Shown one piece after another: positions 22,203-25,605 of a stretch of 32,000 nt of DNA. This DNA is from Mucisphaera calidilacus (GTDB lineage: Bacteria > Planctomycetota > Phycisphaerae > Phycisphaerales > Phycisphaeraceae). The translations under genes and the position numbers were made by a program. The notes beneath the pieces were generated by a model. That model was not told where the DNA came from and did no database searches. It worked only from the letters and a program-made list of their open reading frames with translations. How positions within the stretch are numbered: position 1 is the first letter of the stretch; each line of letters begins with the position of its first letter. The stretch is taken from positions 1,710,001 to 1,742,000 of the forward strand of contig NZ_CP036280.1 in the NCBI RefSeq assembly GCF_007748075.1, read 5' to 3'.

Positions 22203-23225
22203 ATGAATCGCATCAACACACTCGCCGCAACCGCGCTGGCTCTGGCCGCCTCGCCCGCACTCGGGCAGGTTGTGCTCTCCGACAGCTTCGACCGAACGAC
22301 GGGTCTTAACGAGGCTCCGATCGACGGGGGTTTCTCCGACTGGGGTTCGCCCGACAACGCGCTCGGCGGTTCGGCCGCTGGCGACTACCTGCTTGTCAGC
22401 GACCTCGCCAACGCCGCGATGGAGGTCACGGACGGCGACAACGCCATCCTCAACTTCGGCCGCGTCATCCTTGATTACAACATCGCGACCGATGCGGACG
22501 TCCTCGGCATGGGTGCGGTCGAGATCAAGGTTGACTTCAACCCGGGCAACACGGGCGGCCCCTCTTTTAACGGGCGCGACTGGCTGGGCGTCTTCCTGGG
22601 CGACTCGAACCAGCTCAACGGCAGCATCGGTGCCCAGTTTGCTCTCACCGGTGGCAACCCCGACGCACGCGTCGGCGCCGGCCCGCGCAATTCGGGTTCA
22701 ACGATTGCACGGCTGGGCCCCGCCAACATCCGTGCCGCGGGCAACCCCTCCGCGGGCAACTTCAATGAGCCTGCCTACGACCCGTCCGCGCTCGACGACT
22801 ACATCGCCTGGCAGGCCGGCGGAGACGGCACGGCCCCCGGCGACCCCGTTGAGGAATTCCCCAACGACCGCTGGTATACGCTCAAGCTGCTTGTGACCTC
22901 AGCGCCGGGCTTCACGCTCTTCGAAGCCAACGCGCCGCATCTTGCTCAGCTGCACATCGGCCCGCAGGGCGGCACGCTCGATCGCGTGGACTTCATCCCG
23001 CAGACGCCTGAGATCGAAGAACAGTTCAGCTGGGGCGACAACAACACCCTGACCGCATCCGGCGGCACCGACACAACACCCGGTGTGAATGACGCCTACC
23101 TCGTCTTCGTGTCTAACGGTGCGGACCATCGTTTCGACAACCTCACGATCTCGGCGGTGCCCGAGCCGGCCGGGATGGCGGTCCTGGGCCTCGGCGCGGC
23201 GGCACTGCTCCGGCGACGAGCCTGA
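22203..23225 (+). CDS. Secreted PEP-CTERM-anchored protein, lectin-like beta-sandwich (paralogue family member 1)
   Basis: I prefer the ATG at 22203 (GAGGAG 7 nt upstream), giving the signal peptide MNRINTLAATALALAASPALGQ. C-terminal VPEPAGMAVLGLGAAALLRRRA. Paralogous to 24244..25203 and 30431..31252. Confidence 0.85.
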   Translation: MNRINTLAATALALAASPALGQVVLSDSFDRTTGLNEAPIDGGFSDWGSPDNALGGSAAGDYLLVSDLANAAMEVTDGDNAILNFGRVILDYNIATDADVLGMGAVEIKVDFNPGNTGGPSFNGRDWLGVFLGDSNQLNGSIGAQFALTGGNPDARVGAGPRNSGSTIARLGPANIRAAGNPSAGNFNEPAYDPSALDDYIAWQAGGDGTAPGDPVEEFPNDRWYTLKLLVTSAPGFTLFEANAPHLAQLHIGPQGGTLDRVDFIPQTPEIEEQFSWGDNNTLTASGGTDTTPGVNDAYLVFVSNGADHRFDNLTISAVPEPAGMAVLGLGAAALLRRRA

Positions 23226-23238
23226 CCTTATTCGTCGC

Positions 23239-23268
23239 ATCTCGTCCCTGTTGACGCGGGGACGAGAT
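23239..23268 (+). terminator. 10-bp perfect stem-loop just after the first PEP-CTERM gene (terminator or attenuator without a U-tract)
   Basis: ATCTCGTCCC (23239..23248) pairs with GGGACGAGAT (23259..23268) around a 10-nt loop. It starts 14 nt after the stop at 23225 and is followed by CTTCAACCC. Confidence 0.45.
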
Positions 23269-23336
23269 CTTCAACCCGTGGCACGCAGCCCGGGAACCGA
23301 ACACGGCGTACACCGCCCCAACGCATGGAGGCCTCG

Positions 23337-24188
23337 ATGTCACCGAGCCACGGCTATCGCGCTTTCACACTCATCGAACTGCTGGTGGTGATTTCCATCA
23401 TCGCGCTGTTGATCGGCATCCTCCTGCCGGCCCTCGGCGCTGCGCGTGACACGGCGCGCTCGGTCAGCTGCCTCAGCCAGTCGAGGCAGATCGGCACCGC
23501 CTTCGCTGCGTGGCAGGTCGACAACGATTACGGGCCGATCCCCACCTGGCACTCGGTCGCGCTCAACGACGGCGGCTATTTGAATCTCGAAGCCGACCAG
23601 GCCGACATCCAGGTGTGCCCGAGCACCGAACTGGTCGACGAGGCGCCTCAGGGGTTGGCGACGGGCGTGGGCGGGTGGTACGGCGACGCGGCGACTGCGT
23701 GGAAGAAGCTGCCCTTCCCCGGCGACAACCTCGAGAGCGACGGCAGCTACCAGTACAACGCCTGGCTCATGACGCCAGCCTTCGCGGGCTTTTCGGGCCT
23801 GAGCAGCAACCCCAACTCGGCCGAGCTCCGGCTCAACCTGTTTCAGGGAACCGACAACGCTTTCGACGCTTCCAACACGCCTCTGGTGGGTGACGGCAGC
23901 TGGATCGCGGGCGGTGCCAAGGAGTATTACTACGGAACGGCTCTGGGTGGAGACGTGAGCGACATCGATCCGGTCCAACCGGTCACGCGGCAGGCGACGT
24001 CGACGAGCGTGGGCTGGGGCCCGACCACGCAGGTGATGGGGCACTACCTGAATCGACACAAGAACAGCGTCAATTTCTCGTTCGTGGATGGCAGCGGTCG
24101 TTCGGTCAGTCGTGCCGAAGTCTTCGAACTGAAGTGGCACAAGAACTTTGATATTGAATCATGGCCGGCACCCGACGGTATCCGCTAA
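23337..24188 (+). CDS. Prepilin-type N-terminal cleavage/methylation domain protein, DUF1559 / H-X9-DG family
   Basis: Leader MSPSHGYRA|[28 protein letters not shown]. Canonical H-X9-DG tail [20 protein letters not shown] lies 5 nt upstream of the ATG at 23337; the in-frame ATG at 23325 is also possible. Confidence 0.9.
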
Positions 24189-24243
24189 CCCTGTACGTCA
24201 CAGCGAGACCAACGCCAAACCACGGAAGAGCTAGGAGAACACG

Positions 24244-25605
24244 ATGAGCCTGCAGACCCTGAACCTGACCACGACCGCCGCACTGGCCCTGACCCTCGCG
24301 GCAACCCACGCCGTGTCGTCACAGACCCTGATCACCGATACGTTTGAACGCGAGACGGGATTGATCAACGGCGAGTTGCCGCCCTTCAATCTCTCCGACT
24401 GGGGCACGGCGGACAACGGGGTGGTTGACGGCAAGACCGGTTCCATCCTCGACGCCGATTACATCACCACGCTCGCGGGCAACGGCAACGAGCAGACCGT
24501 CGGCCTGACGACCGATCCACCCGACAGCCAGTACGGCGAGATCCGTTTCGGGCGCGTGATCCTCGACGTCAATCTTGCCACGGTCCCTGAGATCCAGCAG
24601 GCCGGCGGCTTCGCCATCGAGTTCGACATCAACCCCGCCGACCTCGGTTCCAACGGCGGCAACGGGCGCGACTGGGGCGGCTTCATCCTTGCAGACACCA
24701 ACAGCACAACGATCATCGGCGGTGCGCTCGCGATCGCGAAGACCAACAACCAGAGTGTTCGTTTCGGTGCGGCGCCGCGCAATTCCGGGACGGTGCTCCT
24801 GCGACCGCGGCAGAACCTGCTGTTAGGGGACGGCAACCCCTTCGACGGCTCCATCAACGAGCCGATCATCGATCAGACGGTCTTCGATGACTACAGCAGT
24901 AACTGGGACCCCCAGGCCGACCCGATCGAGGATTTCTTAAACCCGAAGTTCTATCGCCTCCGCGCCGAGATCACCTCGGACTTCTCCGAGGGTGCACCGA
25001 GCAGCGCCAGGCTTTACATCGGCGAGACTGGACAACCCCTGACGCAGATCGATCTTGACGGCAACGCCGGCAACGGCGTCTCGGACTCCGATTTCTCGTG
25101 GGGCGTGGGCGGCTCCGCTTACATCGCCTTCCTGGGAAACACCCAGACCCACCTCTTCGACAATCTGCTCATCGAGGCCCTCGCCAGTGACCCCGGATTA
25201 CCCGGTGACTTCAACAACGACGGCGTCGTCGACGCGCTCGATATCGACCTGCTCACGGGCGCGGTGCGCGACAGCTCATCGGAGCCGCAATACGACCTGG
25301 ACGAGAACGGCACGGTCGACGCGGCTGACCTCGACGCGATGATCACGGACGTGATCGGCACGCTTTTTGGCGACGCGAACCTCGATCAGACCGTCGACCT
25401 GCTCGACCTCTCGGCGCTCGCCTCGAACTTCGAAGGGACCGCGGGTTGGGCGGGCGGAAACTTCAACACCGACACGTCCGTCGACCTGCTTGACCTCTCG
25501 ACGCTGGCCAGCAACTTCAACCAGTCAGCGCCAACCGTCCCCGAGCCGACCGGGCTGATCCTGATGGGCATCGGCGCGTCGCTCGCCGCCCGTCGGCGCC
25601 AATGA
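24244..25605 (+). CDS. Secreted lectin-like protein (paralogue family member 2) fused to a double dockerin cassette and a PEP-CTERM anchor
   Basis: AGGAG lies 6 nt upstream. Signal peptide MSLQTLNLTTTAALALTLAATHA. The N-terminal domain aligns with 22203..23225 (TDTFERETG...LSDWG...IRFGRVILD...NGRDWGGF...GAAPRNSG...FSWG...LFDNLLIEA). The cassette starts at 25204 (GDFNNDGVVD...) and ends VPEPTGLILMGIGASLAARRRQ. Confidence 0.85.
   Translation: MSLQTLNLTTTAALALTLAATHAVSSQTLITDTFERETGLINGELPPFNLSDWGTADNGVVDGKTGSILDADYITTLAGNGNEQTVGLTTDPPDSQYGEIRFGRVILDVNLATVPEIQQAGGFAIEFDINPADLGSNGGNGRDWGGFILADTNSTTIIGGALAIAKTNNQSVRFGAAPRNSGTVLLRPRQNLLLGDGNPFDGSINEPIIDQTVFDDYSSNWDPQADPIEDFLNPKFYRLRAEITSDFSEGAPSSARLYIGETGQPLTQIDLDGNAGNGVSDSDFSWGVGGSAYIAFLGNTQTHLFDNLLIEALASDPGLPGDFNNDGVVDALDIDLLTGAVRDSSSEPQYDLDENGTVDAADLDAMITDVIGTLFGDANLDQTVDLLDLSALASNFEGTAGWAGGNFNTDTSVDLLDLSTLASNFNQSAPTVPEPTGLILMGIGASLAARRRQ

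Follow-up and report, generated by a model that had tools for sequence, protein, structure and literature searches.

The polysaccharide utilization loci (PULs) of Bacteroidota, built around SusC/SusD and surface glycan-binding proteins (SGBPs), are regulator-linked, substrate-specific operons in which carbohydrate recognition at the cell surface is joined to glycosidases, sulfatases and an importer. For Planctomycetota, the players of glycan uptake were called 'still unknown' in a 2025 review (PMC12673574), and clusters of carbohydrate-active enzymes (CAZymes) are functionally uncharacterised according to a 2024 survey (PMC11131199). In many Planctomycetes, no paralogue family is larger than that of the prepilin-type DUF1559/H-X9-DG proteins: Planctopirus limnophila has 68, two of which are essential, and Rhodopirellula baltica has 74. 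In Verrucomicrobiota, a 2026 report on Verruconatronum alginivorum (PMC13274419) describes an operon that is induced by alginate and includes the gene for a PulG-like pseudopilin, one with 67 paralogues; a second pseudopilin is induced as well. Its authors suggest type II secretion of lyases. Here we describe a 32-kb window (the whole stretch of DNA analysed, positions 1,710,001 to 1,742,000 of NZ_CP036280.1) from Mucisphaera calidilacus, a dense carbohydrate-use region that contains three adjacent genes, termed A, B and C, and whose layout resembles the PUL features listed above. We propose, with moderate confidence, that A, B and C form the exported, envelope-side front end of an AraC-controlled, inducible PUL-like operon of Planctomycetota, the substrate of which is probably a sulfated, rhamnose-bearing glycan or glycoside.

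The proposal builds on domain content, fold class, paralogy, operon layout and conserved linkage, all of which the analysis shows. Gene A (22203-23225, + strand) codes for a protein with a Sec leader, a concanavalin-A (ConA)-like jelly-roll and a PEP-CTERM tail, gene B (23337-24188, +) for a prepilin-type protein matching PF07963 and TIGR02532, and gene C (24244-25605, +) for a paralogue of A extended by a dockerin and a PEP-CTERM tail. Spacers of 111 nt (23226-23336) and 55 nt (24189-24243) separate them, and a GGAG-type Shine-Dalgarno sequence precedes each start: GAGGAG for 22203, GGAGG for 23337 and AGGAG for 24244. On one side lies a divergent AraC-family regulator (20859-21782, -; PF12833 and PF00165) and on the other two paralogous genes for glycoside hydrolase family 78 (GH78)-like proteins, both without signal peptides: an alpha-L-rhamnosidase (25660-27987, +; PF17389 and PF08531; likely start near 25708) and a second protein visibly similar to it (28088-30364, +). 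Coordinates, shared strand, spacing, ribosome-binding sites and flanking genes were all re-read as an initial annotation, made from the sequence alone, had given them.

The strongest evidence that the three genes belong together comes from related loci. The neighbourhoods of every placeable A-family relative and of three gene B relatives were read, ten loci in total, and in all ten a single gene string combines a prepilin gene with one or two PEP-CTERM proteins of the A type, ahead of sulfatase and glycosidase genes. This linkage spans 35-84% identity, at least three gene orders and two classes. In Mucisphaera sp. (L001) the order is AraC, then A, B, C and GH78, while L003 has AraC, A, B, sulfatase, DUF6785, GH78 and GH2, and L004 has AraC, A, B, sulfatase and GH2. 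L010 reads AraC, B, a C-like protein with dockerin, sulfatase and MFS_2; Phycisphaera mikurensis (L011) reads AraC, B, a remote A-type protein, GH2 and GH43; and L092 encodes a dockerin/PEP-CTERM protein, B, a remote A-type protein, GH2, sulfatase, GH43 and a major facilitator superfamily (MFS) transporter. In a Lacipirellulaceae metagenome-assembled genome (MAG) of a different class (L002), the string comprises an extracytoplasmic function (ECF) sigma/anti-sigma pair, DUF1559, a small open reading frame (ORF), a double-A protein, A and sulfatase, and three short metagenome or run-assembly contigs (L005-L007) carry DUF1559, a lipoprotein of about 140 aa, a C-like protein and A, followed by GH78 or an SASA esterase. 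The divergent AraC gene keeps its position in L001, L003, L004, L010 and L011. No second prepilin gene was called in the flanks of the seven longer loci (L001-L004, L010, L011, L092); on the short contigs L005-L007, flanking DNA is scant or absent. For three further pairs of A and B relatives, the two proteins come from contigs of equal length.

Abundant paralogues might lie side by side by chance; this was considered and is ruled out by the ten of ten loci, with their three gene orders in two classes. Prepilin paralogues make up about 1-2% of genes, given the gene totals of the P. limnophila and R. baltica genomes, and one would be expected within three genes in fewer than 10% of cases. Counting only five independent arrangements, the probability of the observed linkage falls below about 1e-5, a rough figure as the loci share ancestry. 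The conserved CAZyme-linked module that the initial annotation had postulated is therefore supported, and the objection named there, a gene order conserved no better than by chance, does not hold.

The product of gene A consists of the Sec leader (about residues 1-21), the ConA-like domain (about 22-317) and the PEP-CTERM tail (residues 319-340, from 23157). By direct reading, with no predictor used, the signal peptide reads MNRINTLAATALALAASPALG ahead of a Q, and the tail, VPEPAGMAVLGLGAAALLRRRA, follows the pattern VPEP-x15-RRRA. Both features had been noted in the initial annotation; the tail scores 20.1 bits against PF07589, slightly under the cutoff of 20.7, and a 100% identical M. calidilacus protein carries the NCBI name PEP-CTERM sorting domain protein. 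Apart from this tail, no domain was detected in gene A against Pfam, and a sequence search of the PDB returned no relative among solved structures. The AlphaFold2 model (predicted local distance difference test score (pLDDT) 78, predicted template-modelling score (pTM) 0.81) gave 87 PDB matches with Foldseek at E <= 1e-3, the top ones with a probability of about 1.0. The best match is the polysaccharide lyase family 14 (PL14) alginate lyase 5gmt (E 2.8e-6); others are calreticulin, VIP36, legume lectins and the lectin-like domain of botulinum toxin, and enzyme-type matches include heparin lyase I, the PL36 enzyme Aly36B and the putative glycosyl hydrolase 4qhz. Model and matches agree with the beta-sandwich of about 300 aa expected earlier, and the predicted fold of the A family is a ConA-like jelly-roll. 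As TM-scores are low (0.3-0.45), the fold does not separate a lectin from a lyase or hydrolase. Of the label 'lectin-like binder' given to A, 'lectin-like' is fair for the fold, whereas 'binder' goes further than a fold that also fits polysaccharide lyases and hydrolases.

The A family is rare, with 12 matches among 5.8 billion clustered proteins and, in a profile search, 25 representatives at E <= 1e-30 in a set of 1.84 billion. An alignment of sequences that share 37-82% identity with A has about 50 invariant columns, often occupied by Arg, His, Tyr, Asp, Asn or Glu, and the motifs SDSFDR, SDWG, FGR-ILD-N, NGRDW, PRNSG, EP--D and H-FDNL are kept. On sequence comparison, this is an unnamed, new protein family.

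These invariant columns also speak for a rival reading, in which A and C are enzymes: a new family of surface-anchored, endo-acting jelly-roll lyases or hydrolases that would cut the polymer outside the cell, the fragments then being imported and finished by the cytoplasmic sulfatase and GH78 enzymes. We regard this as a serious, though less probable, rival. The PL14 lyase as best match, with heparin lyase I, Aly36B and 4qhz behind it, would fit, and so would two paralogues per locus, as an endo/exo pair or as split specificity. The other enzyme families in the loci (GH2, GH43, GH78 and sulfatase) are usually exo-acting and several members lack signal peptides, so that an extracellular endo-acting activity is missing from the set. 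However, the majority of the fold matches are true lectins, the TM-scores are low, the proteins show no catalytic motif recognisable from known PL or GH families, no sequence match to a solved enzyme was found, and none of the loci encodes a GH88 or GH105 unsaturated-uronyl hydrolase. Enzymatic activity would make A and C the first members of a new CAZy family.

By its profile matches and predicted structure, gene B is a prepilin-type, type IV pilin-like protein. The leader MSPSHGYRA is followed by FTLIE at residues 10-14 (leader motif at 23364), and the scores against PF07963 (27.8 bits, cutoff 21.2) and TIGR02532 (22.2 bits, cutoff 16.3) exceed their cutoffs. Near the C-terminus lies H241-X9-D251-G252 (24057-24092). 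F10-T-L-I-E14, which includes Glu+5, is invariant in 38 homologues, as are R240, H241, D251 and G252. Pilins require Glu+5 for filament assembly. The initial annotation had read the same leader, FTLIE and H-X9-DG tail; the hidden Markov model (HMM) check of the last is split, the motif being present and invariant while the TIGR04294 score of 16.9 bits stays below the cutoff of 19. Its assignment of B to DUF1559 holds for the N-terminal helix and fails for the globular part: the match to PF07596 (DUF1559, SBP_bac_10; 23.5 bits, cutoff 23.3) covers only profile positions 2-33 of 268, and relatives of B match positions 2-36 or not at all. Judged by this coverage, the head of gene B is not a bona fide DUF1559. 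Identity as the type II secretion major pseudopilin GspG was likewise ruled out, the TIGR01710 match reaching 30.8 bits against a cutoff of 88.85 and covering residues 8-65 only.

The AlphaFold2 model of B (pLDDT 88) shows a helix over residues 12-62, an alpha-1 of about 50 residues, and a beta-sheet head of at least five strands. Foldseek found no match for it at E <= 1e-3 among 350,542 PDB chains, pilins and periplasmic binding proteins included, and the sequence search of the PDB returned pilin N-termini only. Exact-sequence look-ups of gene B and of its paralogue P0027 gave no record. A C-terminal motif, F/LW-LKWH--F/YD after the H-X9-DG, recurs in prepilin proteins of L012-L016, L019 and L024, which are low-GC metagenome contigs from bacteria quite different from the host. 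The B-type head may thus be part of a wider unnamed family outside DUF1559.

A different role for B would be that of a membrane-tethered periplasmic binding protein, comparable to the archaeal 'bindosome' proteins, that passes oligosaccharides to the importer while A and C act independently. Pfam names DUF1559 SBP_bac_10, an early paper calls the family solute-binding proteins (PMC2754498), and the pseudopilin genes are operon-specific and near transporters (L010, L092 and the Verruconatronum operon). Even so, we consider this role quite unlikely: the confident model of B matches no periplasmic binding protein, the invariant Glu+5 points to filament assembly, and MFS symporters do without binding proteins.

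Gene C is related to A along most of its length (33% identity over 319 residues, E 9e-41), and its signal peptide, read directly with no predictor, ends in LAATHAVSS ahead of a Q. The PEP-CTERM tail, from 25537, exceeds the cutoffs of PF07589 (21.0 bits, cutoff 20.7) and TIGR02595 (18.6 bits, cutoff 16), so that C is, as annotated, a paralogue of A with a sorting tail. The ribosome-binding regions of A (22174-22192) and C (24212-24230) have a 19-nt motif in common (79% identical); the A/C duplication apparently took in the 5' untranslated region, since this motif is shared. Between the A-like part and the tail, Dockerin_1 (PF00404) matches with 35.7 bits (cutoff 22.9) at residues 320-367 (25201-25344), with the loops DFNNDGVVDALD and DLDENGTVDAAD. 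Four Asp/Asn-rich loops of 12 residues are visible and Pfam covers the first pair only; the second EF-hand-like pair (residues 377-388 and 406-417, 25372-25494) was seen by eye and through an 87-nt DNA repeat. The double dockerin described earlier therefore stands as one Pfam module plus a second pair that has no Pfam match.

In the initial annotation B was a fibre on which, or on A, the dockerin of gene C would dock, giving a capture array like SusD/SGBP. Several points speak for it: the three genes are encoded together and kept across loci, Pfam recognises a genuine dockerin, the invariant Glu+5 is what filament assembly would lead one to expect, and M. calidilacus has polar fibres. This arrangement nevertheless appears unlikely to us, and dockerin contacts especially so as its organising principle. 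The dockerin is absent from the otherwise complete modules L003, L004 and L011, and a Pfam scan of 17 window proteins yielded no cohesin. A dockerin-plus-tail cassette of about 110 residues also ends a BNR propeller and an unrelated 362-aa protein elsewhere in the window (45-50% identity) and therefore appears to be a general-purpose stalk or anchor at the C-terminus; a search with the cassette returned four weak matches only and was uninformative. The PEP-CTERM tail already offers an anchoring route, and the pseudopilin heads differ wholly between loci with similar A proteins.

The remaining operon genes point to catabolism inside the cell. In the B-type loci, signal peptides are missing from the downstream sulfatase and the GH78 enzymes and present on the GH2 enzymes, and A, B and C are exported. 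Adjoining the operon in the window are a sulfatase without signal peptide (19131-20720, -; PF00884) and an MFS_2 sugar importer of the glycoside-pentoside-hexuronide type (14431-16158, -; PF13347); MFS_2 genes also close the module operons in L010 and L092. Leaderless late enzymes beside an MFS_2 importer make A, B and C the exported part of an AraC-controlled catabolic unit. Like that of the window, a leaderless sulfatase travels with the module in L003 (12091-13671), L004 (12063-13703) and L010 (10466-12091), with a near-identical N-terminal pattern, NILL--TDQQR-DTI-ALGN; where sulfatases usually have C-x-P-x-R, it has the uncommon motif C-V-A-A-R. Judged on these sequences, it is apparently cytoplasmic and orthologous-looking across loci. 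Between sulfatase and GH78 in L003, a large multi-pass membrane protein (13723-15741; DUF6785 and PF20580) is a candidate alternative importer. Neither a SusC-like TonB-dependent transporter nor a SusD-like lipoprotein was found among the scanned window proteins or the called genes of the related loci.

This catabolic setting also bears on whether the module might serve the organism's own extracellular matrix and not its nutrition. M. calidilacus lives embedded in matrix, PEP-CTERM proteins such as the floc-forming PepA are matrix components, and module proteins match PepA and further PEP-CTERM families weakly and through the tail only. Against this, the operons are catabolic: besides AraC or ECF regulators they encode importers for sugars as well as sulfatase and GH78 enzymes of the cytoplasm, and no glycosyltransferase or exopolysaccharide (EPS) export gene was found inside them; a matrix function seems to us highly improbable.

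For an exported front end of a catabolic operon, localization, ligand, fibre assembly and the role of B are what we infer in the following model. Upon induction, A and C would be exported by the Sec route, and an exosortase would take off their PEP-CTERM anchors, so that they end up exposed at the cell surface or within the matrix, where their ConA-like domains would recognize the glycan, by binding and possibly also by cutting it. The dockerin/EF-hand cassette of C would act as a Ca2+-stabilized stalk beside the anchor and not as a cohesin plug. B would be cut by prepilin peptidase and built through its Glu+5 helix into a general type II secretion or type IV pilus-like fibre, to which it would give an operon-specific head domain; this head would most likely either help the co-encoded surface proteins over the outer membrane or pass glycan inward. 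Fragments would enter through the MFS_2 symporter, and the leaderless sulfatase and GH78 enzymes would desulfate and de-rhamnosylate them in the cytoplasm. Exosortase, prepilin peptidase, assembly ATPase and secretin genes were not found within the 32-kb window. A broader version, in which each inducible CAZyme operon of the Planctomycetes-Verrucomicrobia-Chlamydiae (PVC) group supplies its own pilin-like head for one shared type II secretion/type IV pilus machine, we put forward as speculative and rather improbable.

Several observations weigh against the front-end model. Cytoplasmic enzymes and MFS import need small fragments, and hence depolymerization outside the cell, which favours enzymatic A and C proteins. 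M. calidilacus is without crateriform structures. A third, shorter A-type PEP-CTERM paralogue of 273 aa (30431-31252, -; A-family profile E 6e-31), missing from the initial annotation, has no pseudopilin beside it. The loci use two pseudopilin types: the B type of 283-301 aa in Phycisphaerae loci and canonical full-length DUF1559, as in L002 and L006, whose prepilin proteins match profile positions 1-267 with 145-176 bits; hhalign aligns only 56 N-terminal columns of the two. A is nonetheless more similar in DUF1559-type loci (50-62% identity) than in some B-type loci (38-43%). A therefore appears to have moved between classes and taken up the local pseudopilin, and such a swap argues against B as a ligand-specific binder. 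Two unrelated head types beside similar A proteins argue against a co-evolved A-B interface, and the B head cannot be matched one-to-one to A or to a ligand. Finally, in 39 metagenomic loci with prepilin genes, a PEP-CTERM neighbour was present in 2/33.

The last count belongs to a broad sample of 80 metagenomic prepilin loci, read with our own ORF calls and regular expressions; the test is rough, as the ORF caller misses genes in very GC-rich loci. PEP-CTERM proteins were found near prepilin genes in 3/107 and far from them in 3/375 cases (p = 0.13, no significant enrichment), and no A-family member was detected in the sample by profile. Scans with the A profile retrieved only two loci from genomes, both already known, and no locus from metagenomes. 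A general co-occurrence for DUF1559 proteins across the PVC group is thus not supported, and a PVC-wide rule of DUF1559 with PEP-CTERM and dockerin was not borne out; this rarity in the broad sample indicates that the module belongs to a lineage.

The Lacipirellulaceae MAG (L002/L009, 7929-11056) carries an A-family protein with 57% identity, above that of some Phycisphaerae loci. Such identity in a Pirellulales genome suggests, on sequence, transfer between planctomycete classes. Its 663-aa neighbour consists of two tandem A-type domains with a dockerin-like insert. In Pirellulales-type loci, a lipoprotein-like gene of 78-150 aa with no Pfam match always lies 3' of the canonical DUF1559 gene (L002 7617-7853; L005 494-889; L006 1001-1453; L007 979-1425) and may be a fixed partner of DUF1559 proteins.

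The module ties one pseudopilin subfamily to a rare, surface-sorted lectin-fold family and to a narrow enzyme set (leaderless sulfatase, GH78 and GH2) under a dedicated AraC regulator in the cultured strain Pan265. On this genomic evidence, the questions of DUF1559/pseudopilin function and of glycan capture become directly testable in a cultured strain. If the broader version put forward above is right, a pseudopilin head and exosortase-sorted ConA-like proteins would capture (or cut) and reel in glycan in Phycisphaerae and some Pirellulales. Operon-specific pseudopilins would then be the missing specificity elements of a SusC/D-independent glycan acquisition in the PVC group, and the DUF1559/H-X9-DG expansions would finally be assigned a function.

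Two non-coding elements accompany the module. Directly 3' of the gene A stop lies a stem-loop with a perfect 13-bp stem (23239-23268, +); the surrounding 65 nt fold at -26.2 kcal/mol (z -3.2, matched by 0/200 shuffles). GC-rich hairpins of 12-14 bp with unrelated sequences occupy the same place in L001 (11036-11145), L003 (10973-11089) and L004 (11051-11143). This hairpin may stabilize or attenuate the transcript and in this way raise the amount of A over that of B and C. The 420-nt AraC/gene A control region (21783-22202) contains a 15-nt inverted repeat (21834-21848 and 21931-21945, 87% complementary, 82 nt apart), which could be a candidate operator or RNA element. A further hairpin lies 3' of the second GH78-like gene, in common with the convergent gene, which is the third A-type paralogue; upstream of this paralogue, a second AraC gene runs from 31563 to beyond 32000 (-). 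An Rfam scan of the window detected no RNA family, and promoter and terminator consensus matches in it were at background level only.

The other end of the window begins with a GH1 gene (808-2220, -), followed by the second set of similar genes that had been placed beside a LacI regulator in the opposite orientation and was found there at 2304-7110 (-). It consists of a BNR/sortilin-type beta-propeller with dockerin loops (2304-4940, -), a prepilin/DUF1559-edge protein (5054-5902, -) and the 362-aa protein with dockerin loops and a PAP-CTERM-like tail (6022-7110, -); the LacI gene adjoins at 7177-8226 (-). From 8478 to 20720 lie an apiosidase-like protein (8478-9752, +), a GH32 protein (9701-11353, -), two GH2-like proteins and the MFS_2 symporter and sulfatase described above. 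The apiosidase-like and GH32 ORFs share 52 nt of their 3' ends (9701-9752), one of which may be miscalled.

Compared with Bacteroidota PULs, the module has neither SusC/TonB-dependent transporter nor SusD, uses a PEP-CTERM anchor and not a lipid, and adds a prepilin-type protein, MFS import and cytoplasmic late enzymes; lacking SusC/D, it does not qualify as a PUL. B shares with GspG/PulG the prepilin leader, Glu+5, a long alpha-1 helix and an N-terminus of which 58 residues align with TIGR01710, whereas its head is twice as large and unrelated, and its gene lies in a catabolic and not in a gsp operon. Gene C has the type I dockerin signature of cellulosomal dockerin-cohesin systems, with paired Ca2+-binding loops; unlike in those systems, no cohesin was seen in the scanned window proteins, and the dockerin sits beside a PEP-CTERM tail, is optional and occurs on unrelated proteins. 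With exosortase/PEP-CTERM proteins such as the floc protein PepA, A and C share a Sec leader and a PEP-hydrophobic-basic C-terminus, but their context is catabolic and not EPS biosynthesis, and their N-terminal domain belongs to an unnamed family. In the Sulfolobus 'bindosome', sugar-binding proteins with class III signal peptides have periplasmic-binding-protein folds and work with ABC transporters. The prepilin-type leader on a protein for sugar uptake is common to both systems, while the model of B shows no such fold.

A literature search on DUF1559, H-X9-DG, PEP-CTERM with dockerin, and pseudopilins of Planctomycetes returned no functional study, and no paper was found that describes this composition, in line with the initial annotation. 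The closest ideas are the 'fishing-rod' hypothesis for planctomycetal polysaccharide uptake, which is current in the field and gives the model its conceptual setting, and the V. alginivorum operon. In the former (Boedeker et al. 2017; summaries in PMC8882080 and PMC12673574), polysaccharide would be bound by pilus fibres and fed to the cell; those summaries name no genes and tie the hypothesis to the crateriform structures that M. calidilacus lacks, and the module offers candidate substrate-inducible fibre subunits and binders. The latter belongs to another phylum and is lyase-rich, and the text consulted (PMC13274419) mentions no PEP-CTERM or dockerin partners; by analogy, it lends independent support to substrate-induced, operon-embedded pseudopilins. 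Pseudopilins embedded in CAZyme operons of the PVC group are thus already known, as are surface proteins with PEP-CTERM tails, while the composition of the module and the A family are new.

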